DNA from: an uncultured Actinomycetes bacterium | Lineage (GTDB): Bacteria > Actinomycetota > Thermoleophilia > Gaiellales > Gaiellaceae | Assembly: GCA_963765295.1 (NCBI GenBank) | Contig: CAVXVO010000004.1 | Span: 349,059 to 413,058 of the forward strand | Length of the DNA: 64,000 nucleotides | Reading direction: 5' to 3' | Shown here: positions 38,745 to 61,147 of the stretch, in pieces | How the letters are laid out: each line of letters begins with the position of its first letter | Position numbering within the stretch: the first letter of the stretch is position 1 | Made by a program: the position numbers and the translations under genes | Notes under the pieces: generated by a model | What the model saw: only the letters and a program-made list of their open reading frames with translations | Databases searched by the model: none | What the model was told of the DNA's origin: nothing

Positions 38745-38818
38745 GGGGGCGTAGTTCAGCTGGTTAGAACGCCGGCCTGTCACGCCGGAGGTCGCGGGTT
38801 CGAGTCCCGTCGCTCCCG
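38745..38818 (+). tRNA. tRNA-Asp (anticodon GTC); attachment site of integrated elements
   Basis: Acceptor GGGGGCG/CGCTCCC and D-arm GTTCAGCTGGTTAGAAC. Anticodon stem GCCGG/CCGGA-type carries loop CTGTCAC. T-arm is GCGGG-TTCGAGT-CCCGT. Confidence 0.9.
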
Positions 38819-38821
38819 TCC
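38773..38821 (+). repeat. direct repeat copy 1 (attL-like; 3' 46 nt of tRNA-Asp plus 3 nt)
   Basis: The 49-bp sequence cggcctgtcacgccggaggtcgcgggttcgagtcccgtcgctcccgtcc is identical to 50259-50307. Its 3' 44 bp are identical to 59814-59857. Confidence 0.95.
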
Positions 38822-38826
38822 TAGCG

Positions 38827-38855
38827 AAGCCCTGCATGTGCAGGGCTTTTCTGTT
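38827..38855 (+). terminator. tRNA-Asp terminator hairpin
   Basis: AAGCCCTG-catgtg-CAGGGCTT is followed by TTCTGTT. Confidence 0.6.
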
Positions 38856-38902
38856 CAGATGGGTCATTGCCCAGTGGCGCTTTTGCTCGACATCCTTTCG
38901 GA

Positions 38903-38924
38903 TGTCAGCGCAATGTCAGCAGGG
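38903..38924 (+). repeat. arm-type-site-like motif, left copy (TGTCAGCGCaATGTCAGCAgGG)
   Basis: It contains ATGTCAGC twice, 11 bp apart. It lies 82 bp inside DR1 and is 20/22 identical to 50137-50158. Confidence 0.6.
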
Positions 38925-40157
38925 CAGTCGAAACCGGCTTTTCGCCCGCCTCTCCCGACAGGTCGTGCGCGGGTGCGGATGCGCCGAATCCGAACGAAAG
39001 CAGCCGGTCGCGGGCTTCATCGCGCTGCGGCTTGCCGAACGACCGGGCGTAGCTCCTCATCCAGACCGAAAGCGAGTGCCCGGTCATTTGCGCCGCCTCC
39101 ACGGGGTCAACTCCTCGACGTCCGGACAGCGAGCAAAACGATCGACGGAGGTCGTGGGGGGTCACCTTGCCGAGTCCGGCTCTCTTGGCGGCAACTTCGA
39201 CTCCGCGCACGGCGACGTTCCGCTGACTGAGGGGCGTGCCAGCGCGACTGACGAACACGAGGTCGCCGTCGCCACCTCGTCCCAGTGCCTGCTCGCGAGC
39301 CAGCAACTCGACCAGCGCATCCTCGACAGCCGGGAGCATCGGCACCACGCGAACGCCCGCCGCTGTCTTCGTCGGGACGATGCGAGCGGGCCGGTCTGCC
39401 CGCGCCAACGAAAGCTGTCCACGGATGTTGATCTCGCCTTCGACGAAGTCAACGTCGCACCACCGGAGTCCGAGCGCCTCGCTCAGCCGGAGGCCGGTGT
39501 AGGCGAGGACGGCCACGACCGGCTTGTAGATCGTGTCGGCGTGCCGGGCCAGCGCCGCCAACTCTTGCTCATCAAGAACGCGGCCGTGTCCTCCAGCACG
39601 AGGTCGGGGAAGCTCGGCCGGATCAAGTCCATCAAGTGGTGATCTACTGATAAGTCCTCGACGGCCAGCCAGCCGGTACACGGCGCGAAGAATGAGCAGC
39701 ACAGACGCGATGGTCGATTCGGCGTACCTTCGCCGCCGCATGGAATGAATGACTTCGGCGACGTGATCAGGCTCAACATCACCGATCTTCCGGTGACCCA
39801 GTGCCGGGGAGATGTGCAAGCGCCACCGGTCGCGGTAGAGGTCAACGCCTCGTTCTGAGCGTCGCCCGCTGGCGGCTAGCCCGTCAAGCCAGGGAAGTAA
39901 ACGAGTTGAGCAAACGCGTCCAGGCTCTGGGGGACGGCGACGACCCGGTCGCCGATGTCACGTTGCGCGAGTAGCGCGCGTGTCTCCTTGAGAGCCGCCC
40001 GGTCGCTCCTGGCTGAGAGTTTCTTCGTGTGTTGCGTGCGATCGCTATCCCGGAACGTAGCTTCGTAGACCCACGTCCCATCTTTCCGGCGACGCTTGTA
40101 GATGTTCTCGGCGACGCGGACGCGCGATGCAGCGCCGTGCGAGGATTCATTTCGCAT
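38905..40157 (-). pseudogene. int: tyrosine recombinase/integrase, interrupted by a -1 frameshift (about 39879-39915)
   Basis: The N-terminal arm/SAM-like part is ORF 39876..40157 (ENIYKRRRKDGTWVYEATFRD...). The catalytic part is in the frame of ORF 38905..39819, with R...HDLRRS...GHSLSVWMRSY active-site-type motifs. That frame stays open upstream as LLPWLDGLAASGRRSERGVDLYRDRWRLHISPALG. Confidence 0.85.
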
Positions 40158-40545
40158 GGGGAGTAGCTCCTCTCCTTGCCGGGGGCGGGGCCGTTAGCGC
40201 GGCGCTCGCCCCATTTCGTGTCGTCTGAATCGTACCGTCCGCCCTCAAAGCGGCGTCCAGCGCGGAGGTATCGACGAGCCAGCGTGCTCCGTCTCGGACA
40301 GCACCTGGAAGCTGTCCGCGCTGAGCCCGTTTGCGAAGCGCGCCGGACGTGCTCCGATAGCGCGTGGCGGCCTCCTCCAGGGTCAGCCATGCCGGTCTCG
40401 CCTCACCGAGTTGCGCCAGCACGATCTCGGCCGCCCTCATCGCGATCGTCTCGATCGAGCCCGGCGGGCACACGAACGTCATCTCGACGATGTTGCCGTT
40501 CGCCGTGCCAGCCGTCCTCGTCCGAGTCCGAGGATCGCTGTTCAC
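40147..40545 (-). CDS. xis: excisionase-like helix-turn-helix (HTH_17/MerR-type) protein
   Basis: 132 aa with WLTLEEAATRYRSTSGALRKRAQRGQLPGAVRDGARWLV. Its GTG start overlaps the upstream stop (GTGA), and its 3' end overlaps the int start. Confidence 0.65.
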   Translation of the reverse strand: MNSDPRTRTRTAGTANGNIVEMTFVCPPGSIETIAMRAAEIVLAQLGEARPAWLTLEEAATRYRSTSGALRKRAQRGQLPGAVRDGARWLVDTSALDAALRADGTIQTTRNGASAALTAPPPARRGATPHAK

Positions 40546-41312
40546 GCGTCCTCCGGAATGTCAGGGGTGAACGGGAGGTCGTCGTCGTCGTCGTCGTCGT
40601 CTAGCTCGAACTCCTCGGGTTGGCAGCGTCGCCCTGCAAGGGCGTTATCAAGGAGGCGGTAGGCGTACCCCGCATCAGAGCGGACGTCCGGCCGCTGATC
40701 TACGGAGGCGAGAACGTCGTAGACCTCGTCCGCGTCCAGACGTCCGAACCGCTTTCGGAAGAGCAAAAGTGTCCCTGAGTCTGCGTCTTCGAGACTGTCC
40801 ACTAGTTCTTGAAGAGCGTGGTCTGTCTCGTCCTCGACTGACGTGGGTTCTGATCGCAGATACTCGCGCGGCGTCGCGTCAGCGGCGTCCGCGTGACAGT
40901 CAGTCAGGCTCTCCCTACTCTCTCCTCCTTCCTCTATACGTGCCCGCTCGATAGCGGGCGTTTGTGCGGGTGTTTGTGCGGGGCTTCCCGCGGGTGTTTC
41001 GCTCGCTATGTCCCGCTCGGACGCGGGGGTTTCGTCCCCGAAGAGGAGCGTGTACGTCCCACGGTGACCGCGACCCGTGTGTTCGGGCGGTTCGTAGCTG
41101 AGCAGGCCCTTGTAGATCAGTCCGTCCCTGGCCCGCTTGAAGCTCCGCCCGTGGTGTAACCGCGAAGATTCGCGGAGCAGGTCTTCACCGACGCGCTGTG
41201 ACCTGACACGGAAGCCAAGCAACAGGCGAACGAGGGCTATAGCAAGCTGCCACTCCTCAGTACCCAGCCCGGCGTCGAGGAGGCGCTCGTGGAAGACGTT
41301 GTAGTCGCTCAC
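40542..41312 (-). CDS. putative replication/winged-helix protein with acidic C-terminus (Rep_O-like N-terminus)
   Basis: 256 aa. The N-terminal about 100 aa resemble the phage replication-protein wHTH (EEWQLAIALVRLLLGF...SFKRARDGLIYKGLLSY). It contains a D8 run encoded by (GTC)8. The assignment is tentative. Confidence 0.45.
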   Translation of the reverse strand: MSDYNVFHERLLDAGLGTEEWQLAIALVRLLLGFRVRSQRVGEDLLRESSRLHHGRSFKRARDGLIYKGLLSYEPPEHTGRGHRGTYTLLFGDETPASERDIASETPAGSPAQTPAQTPAIERARIEEGGESRESLTDCHADAADATPREYLRSEPTSVEDETDHALQELVDSLEDADSGTLLLFRKRFGRLDADEVYDVLASVDQRPDVRSDAGYAYRLLDNALAGRRCQPEEFELDDDDDDDDLPFTPDIPEDA

Positions 41313-41848
41313 GCGCCCGCCTTCAGCGCGTGGCCGACGCCCCTCTCGGGGGCTAAGTCAGGGTCGTCCTGTCGCCCCGGGCCCGCCCGCGTCGGCCGAG
41401 CCCGGCGACGCCCGCGCGGCCGTGACCTCCCCTGAGCCGTCTGCCTCGACGTACTCACCGACGTCGCCCGCGCACACGTTGACGGCGAGATCGCGGCGCG
41501 GCTCTGAGCCACGCGGGAGTCGAGTCGCCACGCCACCTCCGTGAGTGCGGCTGCGGCCATCTCTATCTCGCTCGCACCGCCGTCCTCGCCAGAGGCAAGG
41601 GCGTCGGCTGCGTCTTCTCGCTCGGCGCGTGTCATAGAGACGCCGTCCCGACCCGCCCGGGTGATGGCTTCCGCCAACGTGTCCCTAGCCGCCTCCAGGC
41701 GCATCGCCGAGGTCGGCGGCGACGACCACGCTCCGCCCTGGACTTGCCACGCCGCATATCCCGCTGCGGCGTGATCAGCCGGGTCTAGCTCGGCGGTCGG
41801 ACTCAGCGCGTCGGCGGCCACCGGAATACCGTCCTGCAGTTCACGCAA
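41309..41848 (-). CDS. hypothetical protein (island A)
   Basis: 179-aa ORF whose stop overlaps the next start (GTGA). The C-terminal third is Arg/Pro-rich, and an alternative frame (RDLAVNVCAGDVGEYVEADGSGEV) looks more protein-like. A further frameshift is therefore possible. Confidence 0.4.
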   Translation of the reverse strand: MRELQDGIPVAADALSPTAELDPADHAAAGYAAWQVQGGAWSSPPTSAMRLEAARDTLAEAITRAGRDGVSMTRAEREDAADALASGEDGGASEIEMAAAALTEVAWRLDSRVAQSRAAISPSTCARATSVSTSRQTAQGRSRPRGRRRARPTRAGPGRQDDPDLAPERGVGHALKAGA

Positions 41849-42023
41849 ACGAGTCTAGGACGGCGCCAGGACGGAGCCCCGAAACCCGCCGCAAAACGGC
41901 TAAGGGCCGCACATTGGCGGCCCCTGCCGGTGAACTTCGTCGGACGGTAACCGACAGAGCGAATCGTAGAGACCGCGCCGGAGAGCAAACCTCATTTGCC
42001 GCGAGACGAGCCGGGAGGTCGAA

Positions 42024-42251
42024 CTAATCGCCCAGATGCCGAAGTTCCTTCGGCACCCAGGTCGGGCTGAAGTGCTCGAAGCAGTCGAAGACCATCTTCG
42101 CCACCCCGTGATCGACGCGAACCGCCACACCCTTCCGATACAGCCCGCAAACGTCGGCATGTCCGACATCCTCGTCGCGATCGATCCGCGATTCAAGCTC
42201 GCTTGGCCCCGAGGGTGTGGGGTAGACGGCTCTGTGGTGCAGACCTATCAT
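42024..42251 (-). CDS. small hypothetical protein (island A)
   Basis: Internal ATG (MIGLHHRAVYPTPSG...FEHFSPTWVPKELRHLGD). No family was recognised and the coding signal is weak. Confidence 0.3.
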   Translation of the reverse strand: MIGLHHRAVYPTPSGPSELESRIDRDEDVGHADVCGLYRKGVAVRVDHGVAKMVFDCFEHFSPTWVPKELRHLGD

Positions 42252-42286
42252 CCTCGCCTCAGCGAGCACAAGGAGGCAGGGAACCC

Positions 42287-42616
42287 ATGCGCGCATCGAT
42301 TCGATACCTCGCCGTTGCCGCGCTCGCGGCCGCCGTGACCAGCGCCGTCATGGCGACAACCGGACAGGCGAGCAGCGACAGGACGGCGACGAAGAACTAC
42401 ACGCTGAAGCCTGGGAGCTACGTCAGGTTCGTGGGCATTGACCTGTCCTGCCTCTATCAGCCGAACGACCCGGATCATCACGATCCAGGGCCTGCGTTGT
42501 TCTGCAACCGCTACAGCGCCAACAACAGCCGGTCGTTCGGCGCGAGCAACTACCACTACAGGGTGAGCGATCCAGCGGGCAATCACTGGATCACCACCAT
42601 CAACAGGTCGCCGTAA
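42287..42616 (+). CDS. small secreted hypothetical protein
   Basis: ATG at 42287 follows AAGGAGG. The translation begins MRASIRYLAVAALAAAVTSAVMATTGQASS, a signal peptide. The mature part is about 80 aa. Confidence 0.6.
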   Translation: MRASIRYLAVAALAAAVTSAVMATTGQASSDRTATKNYTLKPGSYVRFVGIDLSCLYQPNDPDHHDPGPALFCNRYSANNSRSFGASNYHYRVSDPAGNHWITTINRSP

Positions 42617-42754
42617 GGCTCGAAACCCGACCCCCTGCGTCGCTCACCGTCGCGGCCGACTTGTACCCCGGAAGCGGCCCGGCGAGGGAGATCGTGGCCG
42701 CGCCTCCGACGCGATGAACCTCGGCCCGTCCGCTTTCGCGGCCAACATGGAGCA

Positions 42755-43534
42755 ATGCCGCGCACGTGCAGCGTCTGCTCCCATCCGGATAGGCAGAAGA
42801 TCGACAGATTGCTCCTGGAGCAAACGTTAAGGGACGTGTCGGGACAGACGGGTATCGGGAAGTCGGCGCTCGGTCGCCACAAGCTCGCCCACCTGCCCGG
42901 CGCGCTCGTGCTCGCCAACGAGCAGGAGATCGAGCGGCACCGGCAGTTGTTCGACGAGGCGCAGAGCTTGCAGCGGTCGCTCGCGGGCTGGGGCGCAGTG
43001 CGCGAGCCCGGGGAGTGGCTGGAGCTTCGCGAACGCGCTGTGGCGGACTACGAGTCGGGACGGTTCCTCCTCACCCGGCTGGGCGCCGAACGGCACCTCG
43101 ACCCCGAACAGGTCGCGACGCTACTCCACCTCCGCGGCCGGATCATCGACGAGATGCACCTGACCACCGGGCTGGAACTGATGCTGCTCGACGCGGCGCT
43201 CATCGCCTTCAGAAACATGCTGCTGATCGAGGAGTGGATCGGGAACCTAAGCTTGCTGGTCGAACACCACCTGTTCCGCGACGAGGGGCCGACCCCGAAG
43301 ATCAACCGCACGAACGGCCGCTACCAGGGCCTCGCTGCCGAGGACGACGCGCGACGCCTCCGGGACGACCTGCTCCCCGCGCTCGACCGGGCGAGCAAGA
43401 ACTTTGTCAGCGCGATCAAGACGCTCCGCGACTTCCACGGCACCGGCGTCAACGTCACCATCGCCGCGGTGGGCCAGATGAACGTCGGCGAGCAGCAACT
43501 TGTCGTCGGGCCGAGTGTGACGCCGTCCGCCTAG
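42755..43534 (+). CDS. hypothetical protein with N-terminal CxxC + HTH-like module (phage/plasmid-type)
   Basis: 259 aa. MPRTCSVCSHPDRQKIDRLLLEQTLRDVSGQTGIGKSALGRHKLAHL resembles small DNA-binding modules of mobile elements. The remainder is unknown. Confidence 0.55.
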   Translation: MPRTCSVCSHPDRQKIDRLLLEQTLRDVSGQTGIGKSALGRHKLAHLPGALVLANEQEIERHRQLFDEAQSLQRSLAGWGAVREPGEWLELRERAVADYESGRFLLTRLGAERHLDPEQVATLLHLRGRIIDEMHLTTGLELMLLDAALIAFRNMLLIEEWIGNLSLLVEHHLFRDEGPTPKINRTNGRYQGLAAEDDARRLRDDLLPALDRASKNFVSAIKTLRDFHGTGVNVTIAAVGQMNVGEQQLVVGPSVTPSA

Positions 43535-43846
43535 CGCGCGACCGACCCGACGGCGCAGGCGGACGCCCGCTGAAACCTCACACGATGTGAGACTTGGCGA
43601 GCCCGGGCTCAGCCCGTGAGCGGCTCTCTGACGTCGATCCGGCCCGGGACGACGATCACCCCACTTCCGCCTCGCAGGGCTTCCACTGTGCTCGTGGCGG
43701 GTTGTAACAGGCTCGTCGCTAAGCCGGGCCCCTCGCCCTACTACGCCCTCGCGCCGACGAGCATCACGAGCGGCGGCGAGGTGTAGGCGTCGTGGCTGTG
43801 TCGTCCGCGAGTCGGAGCCCAGCCTGGCGCGTGTCACCATTCCTGG

Positions 43847-44830
43847 ATGGGGCGGACGCCATGGGAGATTCTGACCGAGGCCGATGAGCACCTCCGCGAA
43901 CCGAGGCTGTCTGGTGTCGAGTCTTGGCGCATGACACCGGGGACGGTCTTGCAACGGTGGTCGTCTCTGAGCGAGCTGGACAGGCCGCGCTACCTGACGT
44001 TCGAGCAGCGGATGGGCCGCTTCCCGGATGCGGTCAGAACCTGGCCGGTGGAATGGCAGGGCAACCTGATTCTGGTGGCGCTGCGCCACCGGCACCTTCT
44101 CGACCAGGAGAAGCTGGCTCGAACGCTCGGTGTCGAGCCATGGGAGATCAAGCCCGCCCTGCCAGTGCGAGTGCGGATGAAGCTCGGGTTCGAGCCGGGC
44201 TTCGAGACGCTCGTGACCGACGAGCAAGTAGCCCGATTCATCGACGTTCGAGTGACCCGGATGCGCGGCGCGACCATCGCCACCGGCACTTCCTACGCCA
44301 CCGCCACCGTCATCCCCGACGCCCTGATCGCACTGACGCGCGCGGCCGTCGGTGACTTCGCGACCGAGCCACTGCCTCTCGACCACCCGCTCGGCCTCTA
44401 CCAGTCGTATCTCCGTCAGACGCCCGCCGTGGTCAAGACTGTGCTTGAAGACGTTTCGAACCGGGTCAACTTCCCGATCTGGGCTCCAGCCGACCTGCTA
44501 GCCGGAGGCGATGTGTTCCATCTCGACGGCGCTGACTGGTCATCAGCACTGGGCTCACCCGCCAGCGAACTCGACCGGATCACTCTCACACTCTCGATGC
44601 AGCCCGGCCACTGGACGACCTACCTCGACCAGTCGCCGAGCCCCGCACACAACAAGCAGGCACGACAGGAGTGGCCGCGATACACCACACCCGGAGCCGA
44701 TAAACCCTGGATGACAAACGTGCTCCAGGTCGAGCGCGAGGGCGTCGGGATCACGATCGTCGCGCACGAACGCTTCCCCGAATCCCTGCAACCGATCGCG
44801 GACTCGCTCGTCCCGTTCGCAGCCGGGTAG
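43847..44830 (+). CDS. hypothetical protein (island A)
   Basis: 327-aa ORF with non-repetitive, protein-like composition. No motif was recognised. Confidence 0.5.
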   Translation: MGRTPWEILTEADEHLREPRLSGVESWRMTPGTVLQRWSSLSELDRPRYLTFEQRMGRFPDAVRTWPVEWQGNLILVALRHRHLLDQEKLARTLGVEPWEIKPALPVRVRMKLGFEPGFETLVTDEQVARFIDVRVTRMRGATIATGTSYATATVIPDALIALTRAAVGDFATEPLPLDHPLGLYQSYLRQTPAVVKTVLEDVSNRVNFPIWAPADLLAGGDVFHLDGADWSSALGSPASELDRITLTLSMQPGHWTTYLDQSPSPAHNKQARQEWPRYTTPGADKPWMTNVLQVEREGVGITIVAHERFPESLQPIADSLVPFAAG

Positions 44831-45180
44831 CGGCCCCTCCGACTTCAACCGGCCCCCGGTCAAGTTAGACGTATCGAGCCGCAGCAGCGGCACGGAAAGG
44901 TACTGACGGCCACCCGCATCGACAAGCCGACACTTTCCTCGCACAGCACACCCGCACCGTCCCAGCAGTGAGGGCCGCTCGTGGCGGTGCGGGCTCCTTA
45001 CCCCACAGAACCGCCTGACCCTGGCCGCCCCGGGGCCAGGCGCGTTTCGCCAAGCCTCCTAGTAGTAGGCCGAGCCCGAGCCGGGCCACCCGCCCTCGAC
45101 GCCCGACTACGCCTCGGCGAAGACGACCATCACGTACGGCGCCGACGCCGTCACCTCGATCGGCGCCGCCAGACAGGTGC

Positions 45181-45423
45181 TTACGCCATGGCGGTTCCGA
45201 CCGCCTCGATCGGCTTTGACCCCGAGGAAACCTCCTTCACCTTCCGACCCCGCCGTGCCTGCTTGCGGCCCTTACGGGCAAGCTCCTCAGCTTCTTCAAC
45301 CGTGACATCGAGGACAAACTGGCCCTTACGGGAGTCCGCGAACGTGACTGTCACGGTCGCGCTATTGCCTTCCTCGATGACGTCGCCCGAGAGGTCTGAA
45401 ACGATCACGGTTCGTCTTGCCAC
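45181..45423 (-). CDS. small basic protein resembling the Lsr2 N-terminal (oligomerisation) domain
   Basis: GTG at 45423 follows AAAGGAG. VARRTVIVSDLSGDVIEEGNSATVTVTFADSRKGQFVLDVTVEEAEELARKG parallels the Lsr2 N-terminal pattern. An Arg/Lys-rich linker follows. No obvious C-terminal AT-hook domain is present. Confidence 0.45.
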   Translation of the reverse strand: MARRTVIVSDLSGDVIEEGNSATVTVTFADSRKGQFVLDVTVEEAEELARKGRKQARRGRKVKEVSSGSKPIEAVGTAMA

Positions 45424-45565
45424 GTCCGCTCCTTTCGCCGAGAGGGGACGAAACCTAGCCAAGCCAACGCGCGACAGAACCACTTCACGGTGGGCCCGGG
45501 ATCGGCCGACTCCGAGTGCGTGGGCGATGAAGTGCGAGTTGAGTCCGGTCGGAACCGGGGTAGGC

Positions 45566-45784: not shown

Positions 45785-46009
45785 CGCGAGTGAGGCTAGC
45801 AGCCGGGCCTCGCGCTCTGATGCGCGCTCGCGTCGTTGAGACCAGGCACGGCCCGATCGGGGGCGATCTCGCCTCGATCAGGCCGAGGATGAGGGTTTGC
45901 TGCCTCGCGTCGACGCGTCTCACTCTCGCCTCATCTGGGATCGTGACCCTCGGTCGCCACTCAGGATGGATAGGAGTGACGACCAGCCTCGGGTTGAGAC
46001 GCGGTCGCG

Positions 46010-53096: not shown

Positions 53097-53128
53097 GTCG
53101 CGACTATAAGGCTGCCAGGCTCGACGCG

Positions 53129-54373
53129 GTGCGTCAGTATCCCCCGATGCACCCGCGCGAACGTAGGTCGACCAGGCGGCGGTTCGTGGTCGCGTCGGCC
53201 GGTGCGATCGCCGCGCTGCGAGCCGGCCTATCGGTCGCCGCAGCCGCAGGCGTGCCGCTCGGACCCGGCGGCATCCCGCTCGCTAGGCGCGATCATCCCG
53301 TGACGCTGCCGATCTACCCGGACAACGAGCCGATCGACTCCGTCAAGAGCCCAGAGCGGGGGCCGCTCCAGGTCTTCACCTGGAGCGCCTACATCAACCC
53401 GACCGTCGTGAAGGCGTTCGAGAAGCAGTACAAGGTCGGAGTCACCGTCACGAGCTTCGAGAACGAGGAGGAGGCGCTCGCGAAGCTGTCGAGTGGGGCC
53501 GTGCACTTCGACGTCTGGTTCGGGACCGTGCAGTACCTCGGCAAGTCCGTCGCAGGCAAGCTGATCCAGCCTCTCAACCATCACTACCTGCCGAACCTGC
53601 GCGCGAACATCTGGCCGTCGCTCGTCAGCCCCTACTACGACGTCGGCTCCCGCTACACCATCCCGTACGTCGTCTACACGACGGGCATCTCGTGGCGACG
53701 CGACAAGGTCAGGGCCCCGACGACCTTCGCGAACCCTTACGACATTCTCTGGGGGACGCCTAGGAGCGCGGGCAAGGTCGCCGTGATCGACGATCTGCGG
53801 GAGGCACTCGGGATGACGCTGCTTCGGCGTCACGTCGCAAACGTGAACACGGAGAGCCCCGCTCTCGTCGGACGGGCCGGCGCCGATCTCTCCGAGCTGA
53901 CGAAGCGTCTGAACGTCAAGGTCAACCAGACCGACTACCAGGACATCCCCTCGGGAGCGACCTGGATCGCCCAGGCCTACTCGGGAGACATGGCGACCTC
54001 CGCGTACTACATGCCGAAGGGCGTGCCGGTGAGCGTGGTCGGCTTCTGGCGGCCGCAGCGGGGCGGGATGATCGGCAACGACGTGATCACGGTGCTGCGC
54101 GGCTCGAAGCGGCCGGTCCTGGCACACCACTTCCTGAACTTCCTGCTCGACCGAGGTCACGCGCTCGAGAACTTCGGCTTCCTCGGCTACGTGCCGCCGC
54201 AGAAGAGCCTCGACCCCGCGTCGCTGATCGCGAAGGGGTACGTGCCGAAGAACCTGGCGTCCACGATCGTCCGGGAGGAGGAGTTCCGGCACGACCACAC
54301 GCTGCTGCCGCTGACGACGGCCGGCGAGATTCTCTGGCAGAACGCCTGGTCGAAGTTCAAGGCCGGCGGCTAG
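53129..54373 (+). CDS. PotD/PotF-family ABC substrate-binding protein with Tat-type signal
   Basis: 414 aa with a twin-arginine leader (RRSTRRRFVVASAGAIAAL). Family-typical motifs are VFTWSAYINP and YVVYTTGISWRRDKV. The ligand cannot be inferred. Confidence 0.8.
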   Translation: MRQYPPMHPRERRSTRRRFVVASAGAIAALRAGLSVAAAAGVPLGPGGIPLARRDHPVTLPIYPDNEPIDSVKSPERGPLQVFTWSAYINPTVVKAFEKQYKVGVTVTSFENEEEALAKLSSGAVHFDVWFGTVQYLGKSVAGKLIQPLNHHYLPNLRANIWPSLVSPYYDVGSRYTIPYVVYTTGISWRRDKVRAPTTFANPYDILWGTPRSAGKVAVIDDLREALGMTLLRRHVANVNTESPALVGRAGADLSELTKRLNVKVNQTDYQDIPSGATWIAQAYSGDMATSAYYMPKGVPVSVVGFWRPQRGGMIGNDVITVLRGSKRPVLAHHFLNFLLDRGHALENFGFLGYVPPQKSLDPASLIAKGYVPKNLASTIVREEEFRHDHTLLPLTTAGEILWQNAWSKFKAGG

Positions 54374-54392
54374 GCGCGGAACCGAGGAGCGG

Positions 54393-55292
54393 GTGATGGG
54401 GCGGCACCGGTTCCTCTGGCCCCTGTTCGCTTTCCCGGGAACGGTCTGGCTCGTCCTGTTCTTCCTGATCCCGTTCTACGCCGTCCTGTCGGTGGCGTTC
54501 GGCACAGTCGATCCGATCTTCCAGGGCCCGGTGCCCGTCTGGAACCCCCTGGACTGGCAATTCGAGACGATGCGCTCGGTCCTCGACCAGCTCCGGCCCG
54601 GGGAGGTCTTCTGGACGGTCTTCGTCCGCACGTTCGCCTATGTGGCGGTCGCACTCGCCGGCTGCCTCGCGATCGGCTATCCCGTGGCGTACTACCTCGC
54701 CCGTCATGCCGGGCGGACGAAGGTGCTGCTGCTCGTGCTGCTGATCATCCCGTTCTGGGTCAGCTACCTGATGCGGATGCTGGCCTGGATCGGGTTGCTC
54801 CTGCCCGACGGGCTCGTCAACCGCACGCTCGTCGACCTCGGCATCCTCAGCCACCCGTACGGCTGGCTCGACGGGCAGCCGTCGTCCGTGATCTTCGCGC
54901 TCGTCTACGGCTACGTGCCCTACCTGATCCTGCCGCTGTTCGCTGTCCTCGATCGGATCGAGCCGCACCTGATCGAGGCCGGCCTTGATCTGGGCGCGAG
55001 CCGTTTCGCCACATTCCTCCACGTCACGCTGCCGCTCAGCAAGCAGGGCATTCTCGCCGGCTGCGTCCTGATCGCCCTGCCGATGTTCGGCGACTACTAC
55101 ACGAACGACGTCATCTCGGGCTCGCCGGGCACGTCGATGATCGGCAACCAGATCAACCTCTTCTTCCAGGGTGGCCCTCAGCGCACGACAGGTGCGGCGC
55201 TCGTCATCGTCCTGGCCCTGCTGCTCGCCGGGCTGATGTCCTACTACCTGATCTCGACCGCGCGCGCGTCGCGCCGGCCGGCGGTGGCATGA
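54393..55292 (+). CDS. ABC importer permease (PotB-like)
   Basis: 299 aa with 6 TM helices and an EAA-type loop (LIEAGLDLGASRFATFLHVTLP). Confidence 0.85.
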   Translation: MMGRHRFLWPLFAFPGTVWLVLFFLIPFYAVLSVAFGTVDPIFQGPVPVWNPLDWQFETMRSVLDQLRPGEVFWTVFVRTFAYVAVALAGCLAIGYPVAYYLARHAGRTKVLLLVLLIIPFWVSYLMRMLAWIGLLLPDGLVNRTLVDLGILSHPYGWLDGQPSSVIFALVYGYVPYLILPLFAVLDRIEPHLIEAGLDLGASRFATFLHVTLPLSKQGILAGCVLIALPMFGDYYTNDVISGSPGTSMIGNQINLFFQGGPQRTTGAALVIVLALLLAGLMSYYLISTARASRRPAVA

Positions 55293-56164
55293 AGCGCGTC
55301 CGCGAGTGGTGGTCGAATCCGTGGGGGCGGCCGCGCTTCCTCGTCGCGTTCACCTGGCTCTACATCGCCTGGTCGATCGTCCCGATCGCGATCGCCATCC
55401 TGTTCTCGTTCAACGCGGGCAAGTCCCGGAGCGTCTGGCAGGGCTTCTCGACGCGCTGGTACTGGGGCCCTCAATCCGTCCTCCACGACCCGACGCTGCG
55501 AGGGGCGCTCGAGCAGAGCCTCAAGCTGGCCGTGGTGGACATGGCGATCGCGGTTCCGCTCGGCGTGGCGCTCGCACTCGGGCTCACGCGCTGGCGGGGT
55601 TACGGCTCACGGCCCGCGAACCTGCTGATGCTGTTCCCGCTCGTCATGCCCGAGATCGTGATGGCGGTGTCGCTGCTGCTCGTCTTCACGACGCTGTACC
55701 GGTTCGAGCTCGGCACGACGGCGCAGGTGCTCGGGCAAGTGACGTTCTCGGTCTCGTTCGTCGTGGTGGTCGTACGCGGCAGGCTCCTCTCGATCGGGAG
55801 GGAGTACGAGGAGGCCGCGGCCGACCTCGGCGCCTCGCCGGCCGCCGCGCTGCGGCTCGTCCTGCTGCCGCTGCTCTTGCCGGCGATCCTCGCCAGCTTC
55901 GTGGTCGTGTTCGCGCTCTCGATCGACGACTTCGTGGTCACGGACTACCTCTCGTCCGACGCCTCCACCCAGACGGTGCCGATCCAGATCTACTCGAGCG
56001 TCCGCGGCACGAGCACGCCTGCGCTCAACGCCGTGGCGACGCTGATGGTCGTGGCGACGCTGCTCGCGTTCGCGCTGGTGTTCGTCCTCCACCGGCGCTA
56101 CTCGGGCCGCCAGGACGCAGGCGGCAGCTCGTCCCTGCGGGAGATCGCGGCCTTCGATGTCTGA
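55289..56164 (+). CDS. ABC importer permease (PotC-like)
   Basis: 291 aa with the loop [23 protein letters not shown]. It overlaps its neighbours by 4 and 8 nt. Confidence 0.85.
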
Positions 56165-57282
56165 CACGCCTGTCGAGGCTCGCCCCACGCTCAAGGGCGG
56201 CGCCGTCGAGCTCGTCGACCTGCGCAAGCGGTTCGGCGATGTGGACGCGGTCGACGGGATCAGCCTGCAGATCCCCGCGGGCGAGTTCTTCTCGCTGCTC
56301 GGCCCGTCCGGCTGCGGCAAGACGACGACGCTGCGCCTGATCGCCGGGTTCGAGCGGCCCGACGGCGGCCGGATCTCGCTCGACGGCGTCGACATGGCCG
56401 CGACGCCGCCTCACCGCCGCAGGGTGAACACGGTCTTTCAGAGCTATGCGCTCTTTCCCGCACCTGTCCGTGTTCGACAACGTGGCGTTCGGCCTCCGGC
56501 GACGGCGGACGCCGCGGGCCGAGATCGACCGACGCGTCGGCGCCATCCTCGAGGCCGTACGGCTCGAAGGGCTGGAGAAGCGCCGGCCCTCGCAGCTTTC
56601 AGGCGGCCAGCAGCAACGGGTTGCGCTGGCGCGAGCGCTCGTGCTCGAGCCGTCCGTGCTGCTGCTCGACGAGCCGCTCGGCGCACTCGATGCGAAGCTG
56701 CGCAAAGCTCTCCAGCTCGAGCTGAAGACGATTCACGAGGAGTTCGGGATCACCTTCGTCTACGTCACGCACGACCAGGAAGAGGCACTGACGATGTCCA
56801 ACCGGATCGCGGTCATGTCCGCCGGGCGCGTCGAGCAGGTCGCGACGCCCGAGGAGATCTACGAGGAGCCGGCGACCGTGTTCGTCGCGGACTTCCTCGG
56901 CGTCTCGAACCTGATGACGGCGACGGCGGAAGGCACGGACGACGGCCGCTGTGTGCTGCGGCTCGGGGAGTCGGTGCTGCACGCGTCACGCGGCGAGACC
57001 TCGGCGCGCGGCAAGGTGAGGATCGTGATCCGCCCGGAGCGGGTGCAGGTCGAGCCGTACGCGCCGGGAGGCGAGAACCGGATCCCGGGGATGGTCGAGC
57101 GGGTCGTCTACCTCGGCTCGCTGGACCAGCTCGTGATTCGACTAGCGACGGGCGACGTGCTCCAGGCCGTTCTCGTGAACGACGGCGGGCCGAAGGCGTT
57201 CGCCCAGGGCGTGCCGGTACGAGTGCATCTGCCGGCCGAGGCGTTGCTGGTGCTCCCCGAGCGGCCGGGCGTCGCGCCGTGA
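56157..57282 (+). pseudogene. PotA-like ABC importer ATPase; +1 frameshift at about 56460
   Basis: Walker A (GPSGCGKTT) and the Q-loop start ([10 protein letters not shown]) are in the 56157 frame. [31 protein letters not shown] and the H-loop are in the 56446 frame. An extra G in tttcccGcacctg separates the two frames. Confidence 0.85.
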
Positions 57283-59492
57283 ACGTGAGCGACGTGAACG
57301 CGACGGAGGACCCGGGAATCCGGCAGTCGCTCCAGGCGCTCTGGCCCTACTTCCGCCCCTACCCGCGCCTGCTCGTGCTCATCGGTCTCGGCCTGCTCGT
57401 CGAAGCGGCGTTCAACGTCTTCCTGCCGCTGAGCTTCAGCATCCTGATCGACAAGGCGCTGATCCCGAAGGACAAGCAGGTGCTCGTGATCGTGCTCGTC
57501 GCGCTCGCTTTGGGCGTCGTGATCACGGGCGTGGTCGGCGTCGCCCGCGACCGGCTCTACGCGCGGCTGACGGCGAGCGTGATCGCCGACTTGCGGCTCG
57601 AGATCTTCGCCCATCTGCAGAAGCTCTCGCTCGGCTTCTACGCGCGCATGCAGCTCGGGGACATCCTGGCGCGGTTCTCCGGCGACCTGGTCGCGCTCGA
57701 GGGAGCGTTCGTCTCCGCCCTGGCCTGGGCGGTCGCACCGGCGCTCGACGTCTGCGTCTACACCGTGGTGCTGTTCATCCTCGACTGGCGGCTGGCGCTC
57801 CTGGCGATGCTCGTCTGGCCGATCGCGCTCCTCGGGCCCCGCTACTTCGCGCCCCGCGCAGTATCCGGAAGCTACGAGAAGAAGCGCCTCGAATCCCAGA
57901 CGCTGAGCGTCGTCCAGGAGAACATCTCCGGCCAGTCCGTCGTCAAGGCGTTCGGGCTCGAAGACGCGTGGCTCGCCAGCTTCGAGGACCGCAATGCCCG
58001 ACTGCGGCACAGCACGGCCCACGTCTCCTTCCTCAGCTCGCTGGTGGAGAGGAGTGCGTATTCGGGCGTCCTCGCACTCGACGTCGCGATCATCGGCGTC
58101 GGCTCCTGGCTCTCGTTCAACGGCTCGCTCTCGATCGGGAAGCTGGTCGCCTTCCAGGGCGTCTTCCTGGCGCTCGGCTACGGGCTCGCATACGTCACGC
58201 AGTACATGCCCGGTCTCGTGCAGGGGCTCGGGGGCTTTCGCCACATCTCGGAGCTCTTCGAGCAGGAACCGCAGGTCGTCGACGAGGCGGAGAGCGTGCC
58301 CCTGCCGCGGCTGCGCGACGAGATCCGCTTCGACAGCGTCACCTTCGGCTACTCCGAGCCCGACGCGAACCTACAGAACCTGAGCGTGAGGATCGCCGCC
58401 GGCGAGTCCGTCGCCTTCGTCGGTTCGAGCGGCTCGGGTAAGAGCACGGCGCTCAGCCTGGTGATGCGCTTCTACGACCCGTGGTCCGGCTCGGTGACGT
58501 TCGACGGCCACGACCTGCGGACGGTGACGTCCGCCTCGCTCCGCTCGCAGTTCGGCGTCGTCTTCCAGGAGAGCTTCCTGTTCAACACGTCGGTCCGCGA
58601 GAACATCCGCATGGGGAAGCCGGACGCGAGCGACGCCGAGGTCGAGGCTGCCGCGAGCGCGGCTGAGATCCACGAGTTCGTTCTCGGTCAACCGGAGGGC
58701 TACGACACGGTGGTCGGCGAGCGCGGCGGCATGCTCTCCGGAGGCCAGCGCCAGCGGCTCGCGATCGCGCGCGCGATTCTCCGGGATCCGGCGATCCTCG
58801 TGCTCGACGAGGCGACCTCGGCGCTCGATCCGGGCACGGAGGCCGCGATCAACGCGACGCTGGAGCGGGTCGCCAAGGGCCGGACGACGATCACCGTCAC
58901 GCACCGGCTCGCCATCGCCACGACCGCCGACCGGATCTTCGTGCTCGACCAGGGCCGGCTCGTCGAGAGCGGCCCCCACGAGGAGCTGGTCGCAGCCCAG
59001 GGCCTCTACCACGAGCTCTGGAAGCGGCAAAGCGGCTTCACGGTGGAGGCTGACGGCGACCGGGCCGTGGTCAGTCCCGAGCGGCTCGCGCAGGTACCGA
59101 TCCTGAGCGGCGTCGCGCCCGAGCTGCTCGCGCAGATCGCGGCGCTGTTCACGAGCGAGCAGTACCCGGCCAGGCGCGTCGTCGTCCAGGAAGGAGACCC
59201 CGGCGACCGCTTCTACCTCGTGGTCCGGGGGCGGTTGATCGCCACCCGGAAAGACGCGGACGGCAACGCCGTCCAGGTCAACGTCCACGAGGACGGCGAC
59301 CACTTCGGCGAGATCGCGTTGCTGCGCAAGGCGAACCGGCTGGCGACGGTGACGACCGAGACGCCGGCCCTGCTCCTCTCCCTCGCGCGCGAGCCCTTCC
59401 TCGAGCTAATCGAGAGCGCTCCTCACGTCCGGGAGTCGATGGATCGCATCATCGACGAGTACCTCGCAGCCTGGGCCGCGCGAGATCCCTAG
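57279..59492 (+). CDS. ABC exporter (TMD-NBD half transporter) with C-terminal cyclic-nucleotide-binding domain
   Basis: GTG at 57279 overlaps the PotA stop (GTGA). The 737-aa translation has a 6-TM exporter domain, Walker [18 protein letters not shown] and [16 protein letters not shown]-type cNMP domain follows ([19 protein letters not shown]). Confidence 0.85.
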
Positions 59493-59813
59493 GCCCCTCG
59501 AGAGACGGCACCCCGGCAACGCGCGAATCGCTCACACAAGCCGAATCGGCGACCAGCGGCGACTAACGGCGACGGGTCACCCTTCTCCGAGTGCAGATCC
59601 AATGCCGGCTGAGGGATCTCGCGTTGGCCATCAGCCGGTCAGCCAACGGGTCGACTGCCCTGAACACCGATGCCGACTAGGCAGGTTTTGGAACGAACAT
59701 GGAACGCAGAGGTGACGACCGACGGCGAACCGAGCACCGCCGAGATCCCGGAATTCGGCTCAAACAGGCGTGGATGGCGAACAGCGGCGACTACGGCGAA
59801 CCCCGACGCTCAA

Positions 59814-59857
59814 CTGTCACGCCGGAGGTCGCGGGTTCGAGTCCCGTCGCTCCCGTC
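59814..59857 (+). repeat. direct repeat copy 3 (attR-like remnant of tRNA-Asp 3' end)
   Basis: 44/44 identical to 38778-38821. It is followed by hairpin AAAGGCGC-tgcctacg-GCGCCTTT plus T-run (59861-59890), which also abuts the stop of the convergent gene. Confidence 0.95.
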
Positions 59858-59887
59858 GCGAAAGGCGCTGCCTACGGCGCCTTTTGC

Positions 59888-61147
59888 TTACCGCGTGCGG
59901 AGCTCTGCGATCACCTGCTCGGCCTCGCGCAGGTCTTTGGCAAGCGTCTGCAGAAGCTTCCAGCCGATCACGCCGTTCGCCTCGACGAGCGGACGGAGCT
60001 CCCAGAGCGTGAGCCCGTAGCAGACGAGTTCCTCGGACGCAGTGATCGTCGCGATACGCACACCTTCGTCGATCAATGCGACCTCGCCGAAGTAGTCGCC
60101 TGGCCCCAGGGTCGCACGGAGCTCGCCGCCGATCGTGACCGTGACCTCGCCGGACTGGATCACGTAGAACGCGGCTCCGCCCGAGCCCTCCTTGATCACC
60201 GTCTCGCCCTTGGGGAAGTGACGTTCCTTGAACAGGCGGGCGATCTGGACGACCTCGTCGCGGTCCAGGTCGGCGAACAGACGAACGCCTTGAACGACCT
60301 CGACCGGTGCGCCTCCCGAGGGCGCCGGGTCGGAGCCGGTTCGCGTGATCGCCCGGCACTGGAGCAGGTAGAGCTGGTCTCCGGCGATGGCCCATTCGAT
60401 GTCCCGGTCGGGGCCGTAGACCTCCTCGCACCGCTCCGCCAGCCGGTGCAGTTCCTCGAGCTGGGAGTCGTCGAGGCAGAGCTCTTCGGCGAGCTCGGGT
60501 GAGAGCTTCTCCTCGAACGTGCCGCCTTCGGGAAGCGTCCGGATGGCGATCTTCTTCAGGCCCGCCGTGCGCTCGAGCACCTGCCCGGAGCGATCGATGC
60601 GGAAGTTGTCCGGGATCACCATCCCGGCGACAACGGCTTCGCCGAGCCCCCAACTCGCTTCGATCAGCCGTTCGTCTGCGCCGTTGATCGGGTTCCGGGT
60701 GAACATCACGCCGGCGCACACGGGGTCGAGCAGCGACTGGACGACGACACCGACGCTGGGCCGCCTGAAGAGCCCGACGCGCTGCCGATAGGTGATCGCC
60801 GAGTCCGAGTTGGCAGACCACCAGATCTCTCGGACCGCGTCCGCGACCGCGTCCACCCCGGGAACGTTGAGCAGCGTCATGTGCTGCCCGGCGAAGCTCG
60901 CCTCCGCCCCGTCCTCGTCGACAGCCGACGAGCGCACCGCGAGCGGGCTCCCGAGCGGTCCGACCAGCTTCGCCACGTCCTGGAATGCCTGCTTCTCACC
61001 GCCCGCGACCGCCTCGACGACAGCGCCCGAGAGCGCCACGCCGGGCGGGAGCGGCAGACCCGAACGTGCCGCCTCCCCGAGCCCGACCGCCTTCGAGCCG
61101 AACAGGGATTCGTCGTGGGCCTGCTCGAGCGGGACGATGCCGTCCAT
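59888..61147 (-). CDS. PEP/pyruvate-binding (PPDK_N ATP-grasp) domain protein fused to a C-terminal cNMP-binding domain
   Basis: 419 aa. GSKAVGLGEAARSGLPLPPG...AVRSSAVDEDGAEASFAGQH is the PPDK_N signature. The C-terminal part is GDYFGEVALIDEGVRIATI (cNMP-binding fold). Its ATG overlaps the upstream stop (ATGA). Confidence 0.8.
   Translation of the reverse strand: MDGIVPLEQAHDESLFGSKAVGLGEAARSGLPLPPGVALSGAVVEAVAGGEKQAFQDVAKLVGPLGSPLAVRSSAVDEDGAEASFAGQHMTLLNVPGVDAVADAVREIWWSANSDSAITYRQRVGLFRRPSVGVVVQSLLDPVCAGVMFTRNPINGADERLIEASWGLGEAVVAGMVIPDNFRIDRSGQVLERTAGLKKIAIRTLPEGGTFEEKLSPELAEELCLDDSQLEELHRLAERCEEVYGPDRDIEWAIAGDQLYLLQCRAITRTGSDPAPSGGAPVEVVQGVRLFADLDRDEVVQIARLFKERHFPKGETVIKEGSGGAAFYVIQSGEVTVTIGGELRATLGPGDYFGEVALIDEGVRIATITASEELVCYGLTLWELRPLVEANGVIGWKLLQTLAKDLREAEQVIAELRTR

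Follow-up and report, generated by a model that had tools for sequence, protein, structure and literature searches.

Among the islands that target tRNA genes are those with a tyrosine integrase that makes its crossover in the anticodon loop, such as the P4-like elements and the actinomycete elements pSAM2 and SLP1. It is also known that elements can accumulate in tandem at such hot spots (tandem accretion). The cis-mobilizable element (CIME) and the accretion model were defined for the ICESt1-related elements of Streptococcus thermophilus (reviewed in PMC5704250), and in Bordetella petrii the clc-like islands GI1-GI3 stand in tandem at a tRNA-Gly gene, where tandem islands trap genomic DNA (PMC2717098).

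We discuss here a tRNA-Asp gene with insertions in a soil actinobacterium of the family Gaiellaceae, within a stretch of 64,000 nucleotides that we call the window. The explanation that we favour, with moderate confidence, is that the tRNA-Asp(GTC) gene is a site-specific integration hot spot followed by two repeat-bounded segments of different origins, segment A being a recent island and segment B a CIME-like remnant.

The tRNA-Asp gene and its repeats

The target gene, its left neighbour and the repeat copies are as follows.
36913-38731, plus strand: homocysteine S-methyltransferase / MTHFR fusion gene, left flank (Pfam S-methyl_trans, E 6e-40)
38745-38818, plus strand: intact tRNA-Asp(GTC), the integration target (attB/attL; Rfam RF00005, 71.5 bits; 38744-38821 by ARAGORN)
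38773-38821, plus strand: DR1, 49 bp, the last 46 nt of the tRNA and 3 nt more, core of attL of island A (exact extension)
38822-38853, plus strand: hairpin 1 with T-run, supplied by island A (fold -20.0 kcal/mol, z -4.8)
50259-50307, plus strand: DR2, a perfect 49-bp match to DR1; attR of island A, and the border of segment B on its left (exact extension)
50309-50334, plus strand: hairpin 2 with T-run (fold -16.8 kcal/mol, z -5.0)
59814-59857, plus strand: DR3, a 44-bp copy of the core, identity beginning exactly at the anticodon loop CTGTCAC (exact extension)
59858-59887, plus strand: hairpin 3 with T-run, directly adjoining the stop codon at which the convergent PPDK_N gene ends (fold -22.9 kcal/mol, z -5.8)

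The sequence-only reading that preceded this analysis had claimed three perfect copies of the 3' half of the tRNA on one strand, each followed by a different hairpin and T-run, and on both points it was right. Exact string extension gives a 44-bp core in triplicate, all on the plus strand (38777-38820, 50263-50306 and 59814-59857), and a 49-bp pair (38773-38821 and 50259-50307). A search of the window allowing up to 3 mismatches found 3 copies against 0.00 expected (100 shuffles), with no further degenerate copies in the window. Each copy is followed, 1-4 nt away, by its own hairpin ending in TTTT, with z values from -4.8 to -5.8; a terminator scanner with a strict T-run threshold (5 or more T in 8), applied to hairpin 1 alone, did not call it. 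DR3 with hairpin 3 is 90% identical to DR2 with hairpin 2 over 72 nt.

The tRNA-Asp locus is a family-wide integration hot spot. Extra copies of the repeat are present in 11 of the 40 relatives having enough flank, as 1-2 extra repeats that bound islets of 1.6-8.3 kb, and no tyrosine integrase was detectable in any of these islets. The right arms of the islets are conserved between genomes, and across all islets the left boundaries of the repeats cluster at the anticodon loop, which argues for integrase-catalysed events and not homologous recombination. The sequence-only reading had considered that all relatives might carry the identical arrangement; in the 80 relatives examined, tRNA-Asp is followed by neither A nor B.

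Island A

Island A comprises the following features.
38822-50258: island A, integrated element of 11.4-11.5 kb between DR1 and DR2
38905-40157, minus strand: tyrosine integrase, transcribed towards the tRNA, split in two frames near 39880 (PF00589 E 3e-21; phrog_1 E 1e-51)
40147-40545, minus strand: Xis/RDF-like HTH_17 protein (PF12728 E 3e-5, under the gathering score; PHROG RDF/excisionase E 1e-5)
40542-46107, mixed strands: cargo without assigned function, with the five ORFs that follow
40542-41312, minus strand: cargo ORF
41309-41848, minus strand: cargo ORF
42755-43534, plus strand: cargo ORF
43847-44830, plus strand: cargo ORF (weak tRNA_edit match)
44981-45793, plus strand: cargo ORF
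46010-47638, plus strand: cargo PMT_2-type membrane glycosyl/mannosyltransferase (Pfam PF13231; NCBIfam mannosyltransferase E 2e-18, the basis for the pair)
47677-48771, plus strand: second cargo PMT_2-type membrane glycosyl/mannosyltransferase (same basis)
49150-50178, minus strand: HNH_5 endonuclease-domain protein, last gene of the island (PF14279 E 1e-8)

Island A is a genuine integrated element, with an integrase and a Xis-like gene by the tRNA, atypical composition and an empty site in L001, the nearest relative (93% nt identity). In L001 the order is MTHFR, a single tRNA-Asp and a hairpin 2-type terminator, and hairpin 1 is absent. The left junction (L001 7876-11236, window 35449-38821) matches at 93% and the right junction, DR2 with hairpin 2 (L001 11188-11264, window 50259-50334), at 97.4%, with nothing between the two matches, so that the empty site is precise. 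Homology with L001 ends directly after the T-run of hairpin 2. In the composition check that had been proposed, island A departs from the core in GC (66.6% against 70.6%), in TETRA correlation (r 0.53 against 0.71-0.79 for core chunks) and in GC3 (0.73-0.85 against about 0.9).

With regard to the recombination module, Pfam and PHROGs match the integrase over 38905-39819, and a family HMM matches both fragments (38908-39957 and 39879-40193); full-length homologues have 390-430 aa. The frame break near 39880 is evident in three-frame translation, and because of it present activity of island A is unproven. The break may be a sequencing error, as there are at least 3 other single-base frameshifts in conserved genes of the window; compared with its intact 602-aa orthologue in L001, the MTHFR fusion gene has gained one G near 37586, which breaks its frame and is accompanied by a GC3 frame switch. 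The xis-int-tRNA layout is kept in L169, at tRNA-Ala, where a homologue of the Xis protein precedes an integrase 67% identical to that of island A. The earlier claim that island A has a recombination module and island B has none holds by Pfam, PHROGs and the recombinase family HMM run over all ORFs of the window, matches to the last being confined to island A.

The cargo at 40542-46107 has no notable Pfam, PHROG, PADLOC or PDB matches, and its GC3 is below that of the core. Pfam and PHROGs showed no genes for replication, conjugation (FtsK/Tra, relaxase) or phage structure in the ORFs of island A, and we have for this reason rejected its classification as an ICE, AICE or prophage.

Island A was acquired recently; its tyrosine integrase, aided by the Xis-like protein, would have recombined the attP of the element with the chromosomal tRNA gene. 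The attP would have held tRNA sequence running from the anticodon stem/loop to 3 nt beyond the 3' end. The tRNA was thus rebuilt with the 3' end and hairpin that the element brought in (DR1 and hairpin 1), and the former 3' end and terminator (DR2 and hairpin 2) were moved 11.5 kb downstream, a step shown by the precise empty site of L001.

Segment B and the right flank

Segment B and the DNA to its right contain the following.
50308-59813: segment B ("island B"), 9.5 kb between DR2 and DR3
50458-50961, minus strand: cytidylyltransferase of the lipid/headgroup module (Pfam, NCBIfam)
50964-51719, plus strand: SAM methyltransferase of the same module, specific to the window (Pfam, NCBIfam)
51720-53096, minus strand: long CDP-alcohol phosphatidyltransferase of the same module (Pfam, NCBIfam)
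53129-59492, plus strand: transport module of PotD/F-like binding protein, two permeases, ATPase and exporter (Pfam, NCBIfam)
56157-57282, plus strand: ATPase of the transport module, frameshift near 56460 (GC3 frame profile; extra G relative to L168 and L084)
57279-59492, plus strand: MsbA-like exporter fused to a cNMP-binding domain (Pfam, NCBIfam)
59493-59813, plus strand: non-coding right arm of segment B, 320 bp, directly left of DR3
59888-61147, minus strand: PPDK_N-cNMP gene (Pfam)
61147-62784, minus strand: PEP-utilizer gene (Pfam)
62907-64000, plus strand: GH94 (cellobiose-phosphorylase-type) gene, frameshift near 63650 (PF06165 E 8e-69; translation and frame profile)

Segment B is an accessory operon-like cluster that includes two ABC systems and is predicted to take up a polar head-group-like compound, activate it with CDP, transfer it and export it. 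In keeping with its accessory nature, no more than 84 homologues of the transferase were found at E<1e-20 in a set of 5.8e9 proteins, none of these 84 being from the genome of L001. The transport module is 91% identical (nt) to that of L168, and orthologous clusters are present in L084, L085 and L168, in each case at another locus and without repeats. No recombinase was found among the genes of segment B, no backbone remnants are present apart from the 320-bp right arm, and the sampled relatives include no empty site. In the composition check segment B, unlike island A, is host-like (TETRA r 0.79 against the core, as for core chunks). Serial site-specific integration is therefore well supported for island A and only partly for segment B, and of the proposed composite locus with sharply differing halves the confinement of the recombination module to A stands, while the status of B as an island is only partly supported.

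The case for integration of segment B comes from its right end. DR3 differs from DR2 in its left boundary (44 against 49 bp), and the right arm has two copies of ..GGCGA(C/A)CAGCGGCGACTA(A)CGGCGA.. at 59530-59565 and 59758-59793 (direct repeat D3). The DR3 boundary and the arm motif match the right end of a repeat-bounded islet at the second repeat of L063, another Gaiellaceae genome, and in 1.9 Mb searched the motif lies beside CTGTCAC only there and 3' of PPDK_N in L083. The P arm of A bears no relation to that of B. The perfect 44-bp copy from the anticodon loop, together with the L063-like arm, implies that att recombination happened at some point. The boundary and motif indicate a putative second, independent element type, and suggest that segment B is a remnant, resembling a cis-mobilizable element, from another family of elements. 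Most likely another element, its integrase since lost, would have integrated there first and left segment B behind, and island A would have joined it later by tandem accretion.

DR3 does not mark the end of the non-ancestral DNA. By parsimony the ancestral right flank is probably GreA-TypA/BipA-AidB; the GreA-TypA/BipA flank is absent from the window, and non-ancestral DNA would therefore extend past DR3. The whole of 50335-64000 is non-syntenic with L001 and L002, and the GH94 gene, which has no match in either, appears to lie outside the ancestral tRNA-Asp flank. The PEP-utilizer and PPDK_N genes form a conserved 2.95-kb pair that is located elsewhere in relatives: in L081 and L166, which share the backbone of the window, it is 35 kb upstream, beside tRNA-Thr (L081 8314-11255 matches window 62835-59893 at 91%, adjoining the tRNA), and it is in other contexts in L082, L083 and L167. 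L081 and L166 are each other's closest kin (sisters, 95.8%) and the window falls outside this pair, so that the PPDK_N move may have gone in either direction. The predicted empty site of MTHFR, tRNA-Asp, DR3-type terminator and PPDK_N-cNMP is missing from all 80 of the genomes anchored on MTHFR and from all 87 of the loci anchored on PPDK_N. The proposal that each insertion displaced the older terminator rightwards is not supported either, as it predicts a DR3-type hairpin in the island-free L001, which has the DR2 type. The DNA right of DR3 is thus probably not the original flank, the locus having been further rearranged or the array reaching beyond the window.

Competing explanations and known systems

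Several observations weigh against the favoured explanation: hairpin 2 and not hairpin 3 follows the intact tRNA of the island-free L001, segment B is host-like, has no backbone beyond its 320-bp arm, has its counterparts elsewhere without repeats and finds no empty site in the sampled relatives, PPDK_N is not conserved at the tRNA-Asp position in relatives, and the integrase frame of island A is broken. Given hairpin 2 in L001, entry of B by att recombination requires either that L001 retains a B-type left end or that A and B were captured as a composite. It is possible, although we think it unlikely, that segment B is host-lineage accessory DNA, enclosed by homologous or illegitimate recombination and not integrated via DR2 and DR3, having come from another locus or a related donor genome in a larger block (the B cluster, arm, DR3, hairpin 3, PPDK_N pair, and GH94 onwards), with DR3 an attR relic of an element integrated in the block's other context. 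The native composition of B, the sharing of hairpin 2 with L001 up to its T-run, the missing GreA-BipA flank and loss of synteny from 50335, the changes of neighbourhood of both the B cluster and the PPDK_N pair among close relatives, and the arm motif 3' of PPDK_N in L083 all fit this, and the tandem islands of B. petrii can trap core DNA (PMC2717098). Against it stands the perfect 44-bp DR3, which starts exactly at the anticodon loop and has, like the L063 islet, an element-type arm, so that att recombination took place at some point. Nor does anything point directly to a donor block or second tRNA-Asp locus, and the PPDK_N move may have gone in either direction.

We think it improbable that A and B arrived as one composite, island A having entered an L001-like donor tRNA-Asp already trailed by hairpin 2, the B cluster and a distal repeat, and excision between DR1 and DR3 having captured all between (cis-mobilisation) for integration into the tRNA-Asp of the window lineage, with hairpin 3 its native terminator. 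This would account for an internal hairpin 2 nearly identical to the native terminator of L001 and for three cores still identical, and there is published precedent both for gene capture and for accreted composites being transferred (PMC5704250 and references therein; PMC2717098). However the native hairpin 3 would have to differ by about 25% from that of L001 while the adjacent gene is 93% identical, the GreA-BipA flank expected after it is absent, and with unrelated P arms the use of both by a single integrase is unproven. Least probable by far is an origin of the repeats in faulty assembly, for instance through chimeric joining at a conserved tRNA in a metagenome-assembled genome. The window has at least 4 single-base frameshifts, typical of error-prone long-read consensus, and chimeras could plausibly form at tRNA-Asp, a sequence that many Gaiellaceae of the same soils share at 100% identity, but repeats of 44-49 bp are far below long-read length, each has unique flanks and its own hairpin, 11 independently assembled relatives (short-read MAGs included) have multi-repeat architecture, and the junctions of island A match the L001 empty site to the base.

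In comparison with the tRNA-targeting islands, island A has the intact tRNA at one end and an anticodon-loop-to-3'-end repeat at the other, an integrase convergent on the tRNA with a Xis-like gene upstream, a replacement 3' end and terminator, atypical composition and a close relative without it. It differs in that no replication, conjugation or phage structural genes were detected, in a cargo mostly of uncharacterised proteins with two PMT_2 glycosyltransferases and an HNH protein, and in an integrase frame broken in the present assembly. Segment B resembles a CIME in having no integration or transfer genes and att-type repeats core-identical to those of the adjacent integrase-bearing element, within an array sharing one target gene end. 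It differs in that nothing points to its descent from a decayed ICE or IME, as it has no backbone pseudogenes and just the 320-bp arm. Its arm is unrelated to that of A, simple accretion does not account for the order of the terminators, the right flank has been rearranged, and mobilisation of B is putative. GI1-GI3 of B. petrii are ICEs, large and self-transmissible, whose integrases are related and for which PCR has shown circular forms (PMC2717098), whereas the window locus has only one small integrase-bearing island. The two loci are nonetheless alike in that several direct tRNA-end repeats delimit adjacent islands, alternative pairs of repeats may be used and originally non-island genomic DNA can be enclosed (PMC2717098).

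The tRNA-Asp repeats and island A

The window has a GC content of about 69% and comes from a Gaiellaceae host (Thermoleophilia, Actinomycetota), and the best relatives of the homocysteine S-methyltransferase/MTHFR fusion gene (MTHFR) to the left of the tRNA are all in Gaiellaceae or "Actinomycetes" MAGs. A sequence-only reading had described a tRNA-Asp(GTC) gene followed by two further copies of its 3' half, all in one orientation and each with a distinct hairpin behind it, and its coordinates and description are accurate. Rfam gives a single tRNA, which ARAGORN calls tRNA-Asp(GTC), and the repeat limits are from exact extension. The three copies are referred to as DR1, DR2 and DR3, and the hairpins after them as hairpins 1, 2 and 3.

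Repeats and the segments between them
38745-38818: tRNA-Asp(GTC)
38773-38821 and 50259-50307: exact 49-bp repeat, which with the intact tRNA-Asp bounds island A
38777-38820, 50263-50306 and 59814-59857, all + strand: 44-bp core of DR1, DR2 and DR3
38822-50258: island A, between DR1 and DR2
50308-59813: segment B, between DR2 and DR3

DR2 and DR3 are identical at 44/44 bp; the identity of DR3 begins exactly at CTGTCAC and that of DR2 (49 bp) 4 nt earlier. A search for the core allowing up to 3 mismatches gives exactly 3 matches, with 0.00 expected by chance, and there are no degenerate further copies in the window or in the downstream regions of L001, its nearest relative, and L002, an outgroup. 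Hairpins 1, 2 and 3 are strong (-20.0, -16.8 and -22.9 kcal/mol; z -4.8 to -5.8), and each stands directly after the core and ends in a T-run. The repeats are unlikely to be an assembly artefact, as every copy has unique flanks, the island A junctions match L001 to the base, and the same architecture is present in 11 independent assemblies.

In L001 MTHFR is followed by a single tRNA-Asp and then directly by a hairpin. The left flank has 93% nucleotide identity (L001 7876-11236 with window 35449-38821), and L001 11188-11264 aligns at 97.4% with window 50259-50334, which is DR2 plus hairpin 2. L001 is a precise empty site for island A. DR1 and hairpin 1 were brought in by island A, and DR2 and hairpin 2 are the previous 3' end of the tRNA gene. 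Composition had been put forward as a check on both segments, and it marks out island A as atypical (GC 66.6% against 70.6%; GC3 0.73-0.85 against about 0.9; tetranucleotide correlation with the core, TETRA r, 0.53 against 0.71-0.79 for 9.5-kb core chunks), whereas segment B is indistinguishable from the core (TETRA r 0.79, GC3 about 0.92).

Genes were called by third-position GC and then scanned for domains and families.

Gene order of island A, from the tRNA-proximal end
Tyrosine integrase, convergent on the tRNA: PF00589 E 3e-21, phrog_1 E 1e-51, family HMM E 7e-162
HTH_17/RDF-like (Xis-like) gene, next after the integrase: HTH_17 24.5 bits, under the 27-bit cut-off; PHROG RDF/excisionase E about 1e-5
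ORFs without assigned family
Two PMT_2 glycosyltransferases
HNH_5 protein

The integrase HMM, run over all window ORFs, matches island A only, which bears out the earlier view that there is a recombination module in island A and none in B. An integrase 67% identical to that of island A lies at tRNA-Ala in another soil contig (L169) with the same xis-int-tRNA layout, a homologue of the HTH_17 gene being upstream of it, and the family is thus a typical tRNA-targeting one. The L169 integrase and Xis homologue (9565-11164) abut tRNA-Ala(TGC), so the tRNA target has switched within the family; the island there carries an AbiEi/AbiEii pair.

For island A, Pfam gives no domains of conjugation (relaxase, FtsK/Tra, T4SS), of replication or of phage structure among 20 ORFs, and PHROGs match only the integrase and the Xis-like gene; on this count the island does not qualify as an ICE, AICE or prophage. 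Defence families were not detected, the uncharacterised proteins gave no result with PADLOC, PHROGs or a PDB sequence search, and the viral contigs searched held neither relatives of island A nor attP-type junctions.

The integrase ORF is broken into two frames near 39880. It is one of four single-base frameshifts in otherwise intact genes, the others being in the MTHFR fusion (about 37586; one G more than the intact orthologue in L001), an ABC ATPase (about 56460; one extra G relative to relatives' loci L168 and L084) and GH94 (about 63650). All four are probably long-read consensus errors. With at least three further frameshifts in conserved genes, we treat the break in the integrase as probably such an error and not as proof of decay, and pseudogene calls in this assembly are correspondingly unreliable.

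Island A is a real and precisely bounded insertion that behaves as a classical tRNA-targeting integrative island. Its mechanism is based on an empty site, repeats and int/xis-like genes that were all observed, and from these we infer excision.

A hot spot at tRNA-Asp in Gaiellaceae

One or two extra core copies are present in 11 of the 40 relatives in which 3 kb or more of sequence follows tRNA-Asp; they bound islets of 1.6-8.3 kb in which no tyrosine integrase is detectable (L003, L008, L017, L031, L037, L044, L047, L058, L063, L073 and L080). A clear integrase beside tRNA-Asp was found only in L013 and L028, with weak matches in L041 and L076. The left identity boundaries of all islets fall at the anticodon loop (CTGTCAC, +/- 1-5 nt), which favours integrase crossover, and on this clustering homologous (Campbell-type) integration was rejected as the source of the repeats. 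Islet cargo is ordinary (histidine kinases, MMPL, hydrolases, regulators), and islets whose cargo differs from one genome to another nevertheless have conserved right arms (L017 and L031, 85% over 210 nt; also L008 and L037). The tRNA-Asp locus is a family-wide integration hot spot. The tRNA-Asp gene of L037 (12730-12850) is partly duplicated internally, in its 5' and middle region, perhaps through an assembly error or as the scar of a recombination.

The proposal of serial integration into tRNA-Asp is partly supported: for island A it is upheld fully and the hot-spot concept stands, but the predicted original site and the simple order of terminators are not supported.

A wider reading, which we think improbable, is that tRNA-Asp is a docking platform shared by Gaiellaceae, where integrase-less cassettes of 1.6-9.5 kb with conserved att arms accumulate and swap between genomes, being moved in trans by rare elements with an integrase, island A among them. 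If true, CIME-like cassettes (CIME, cis-mobilizable element) would be mobilised in cis and trans throughout the lineage, in place of a sporadic decay of islands. It would explain the extra repeats without integrase in 11 of the 40 relatives, the conserved right arms with differing cargo, and the hopping of whole operons (the segment B cluster and the PPDK_N pair discussed below) between tRNA-adjacent sites.

Segment B and the right flank

Segment B (50308-59813) holds one compact cluster, for a cytidylyltransferase, a methyltransferase that is specific to the window, a long CDP-alcohol phosphatidyltransferase, an importer of the PotD/F type and an MsbA-like exporter to which a cNMP-binding domain is fused. 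Between the cluster and DR3 lie 320 non-coding bp. The gene content points to a head-group compound that would be taken up, CDP-activated and exported or flipped, with cyclic nucleotides in control. In the segment, no recombinase, integration or transfer genes were found by Pfam (all B genes) or by the integrase HMM (all window ORFs). The transferase has 84 homologues at E<1e-20 among 5.8 billion proteins, the best 85% identical and none of them from the genome of L001; rotifer and other eukaryotic entries are included.

The cluster is accessory. It is downstream of tRNA-Asp in none of 80 relatives, and is found at other loci in three of the relatives' loci (84-91% nucleotide identity), with homology to the window only within 50497-59495.

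The B-like cluster in the window and in relatives
Window 50458-59492: between DR2 and DR3
L168 1311-9548: 29 bp after tRNA-Arg(TCT)
L084 9989-18314: near another tRNA-Arg
L085 3376-11572: no tRNA nearby

Flanking tRNA-end repeats were looked for at the clusters of L084, L085 and L168 and there are none. The cluster is rare and conserved; its two modules are mosaic (91%, 85% and 69% nucleotide identity to L168), and the two-gene lipid module has opposite orientations in different genomes.

The search for empty sites in relatives, which succeeded for island A in L001, failed for segment B. The site that had been predicted, tRNA-Asp joined to PPDK_N, is absent from 80 MTHFR-anchored and 87 PPDK_N-anchored loci: PPDK_N is within 10 kb at 0/80 of the former, and neither tRNA-Asp nor MTHFR is present at the latter (80 metagenome loci plus L081-L083, L166 and L167). 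No backbone-gene pseudogenes were seen in segment B.

The PPDK_N pair (PEP-utilizer and PPDK_N-cNMP genes) to the right of DR3 is a 2.95-kb module (window 59888-62856; about 8300-11280 in L081, L082, L083, L166 and L167) with constant borders and a different neighbourhood in almost every relative (87-96% nucleotide identity). L081, from the genome of L001, and L166 both have the tRNA-Tyr to tRNA-Thr backbone of the window, and carry the pair just upstream of tRNA-Thr, with its relative orientation reversed, between window-equivalent 4258 and 4318; the window itself has 60 unrelated bp there. Parsimony does not polarise this move, since L081 and L166 group together as sisters (95.8%) and the window falls outside them. 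A truncation of PPDK_N at the DR3 junction (419 against 425 aa) was considered and dropped, since the C-terminal tail varies across relatives.

Two other segments of the window also differ from L081 and L166: 950-2473, after tRNA-Tyr, with two AHSA1-family genes, and the low-GC (64.5%) 4417-11018, after tRNA-Thr, with MarR, STAS, DUF892, Ku, DUF6328, EncFtn-like and GNAT genes. Neither has a tRNA-end repeat or an integrase.

GreA-TypA/BipA-AidB lies a few kb past tRNA-Asp in both L001 and L002 (identities: window-L001 93.0%, window-L002 87.3%, L001-L002 87.9%), and by parsimony is the ancestral right flank. It is missing from the window, so non-ancestral DNA, including the GH94 gene, reaches past DR3 to at least 64000.

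An att origin of segment B is favoured by the start of DR3 identity exactly at CTGTCAC, by the repeated motif in the 320-bp right arm and by the accessory nature of the cluster. The putative trace of an element is confined to this right arm, the left side being the native-looking hairpin 2. The arm has two copies of a motif (59530-59565 and 59758-59793), the arm motif/core pattern being GCGACTANCGGCGA-N(10-20)-CTGTCACGCCGGAGG. The motif adjoins CTGTCAC at only two other places in the 1.9 Mb of related sequence, once at L063's second repeat and once 3' of PPDK_N in L083. The latter (L083 11391-11436, minus strand, with window 59776-59820) lacks the rest of the tRNA half and resembles an attR that arose at a secondary site; oddly, it adjoins the same gene, PPDK_N, as in the window.

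Integration of att by att necessarily leaves the native downstream sequence behind the last repeat. The terminator of L001 is hairpin 2, not hairpin 3, and the simple rightward displacement of terminators that had been suggested is not supported on this point. There are three ways out: L001 may retain the left end of a B-type element; segment B, DR3 and the right flank may have come as a block by other recombination; or island A and segment B may have been captured together and passed on as one composite by an L001-like donor. L063 has the same terminator oddity as the window. The hairpins after tRNA-Asp in L013 and L028, where an integrase follows, were considered as a sign that hairpin 2 is element-borne and rejected, as the real similarity is limited to the repeat part, with stems that are different.

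Significance and comparison with known systems

For an uncultured and poorly studied soil family of actinobacteria, the analysis describes an active hot spot of integration and a small, well-delimited integrative island, with exact att sites that could serve for tests or as a genetic tool. The locus is also a case in which being bounded by repeats is not the same as having been integrated as a unit, segment B and the right flank having a more complicated history. It adds little to general biology, as both the tandem accretion of islands at tRNA genes and att-flanked remnants lacking an integrase are already established concepts.

The A-B arrangement resembles the tRNA-Gly islands of Bordetella petrii, where tandem integration encloses DNA originally outside any island (PMC2717098). 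It is also like the tandem accretion and CIMEs described for streptococcal ICEs and IMEs (PMC5704250). Segment B is like a CIME in having no integrase and in being flanked by att sites, with a core shared with its neighbour, but is unlike one in that the empty-site test failed. Given this result, and with derivation from an element no more than a possibility, we call segment B CIME-like and not a member of the CIMEs.
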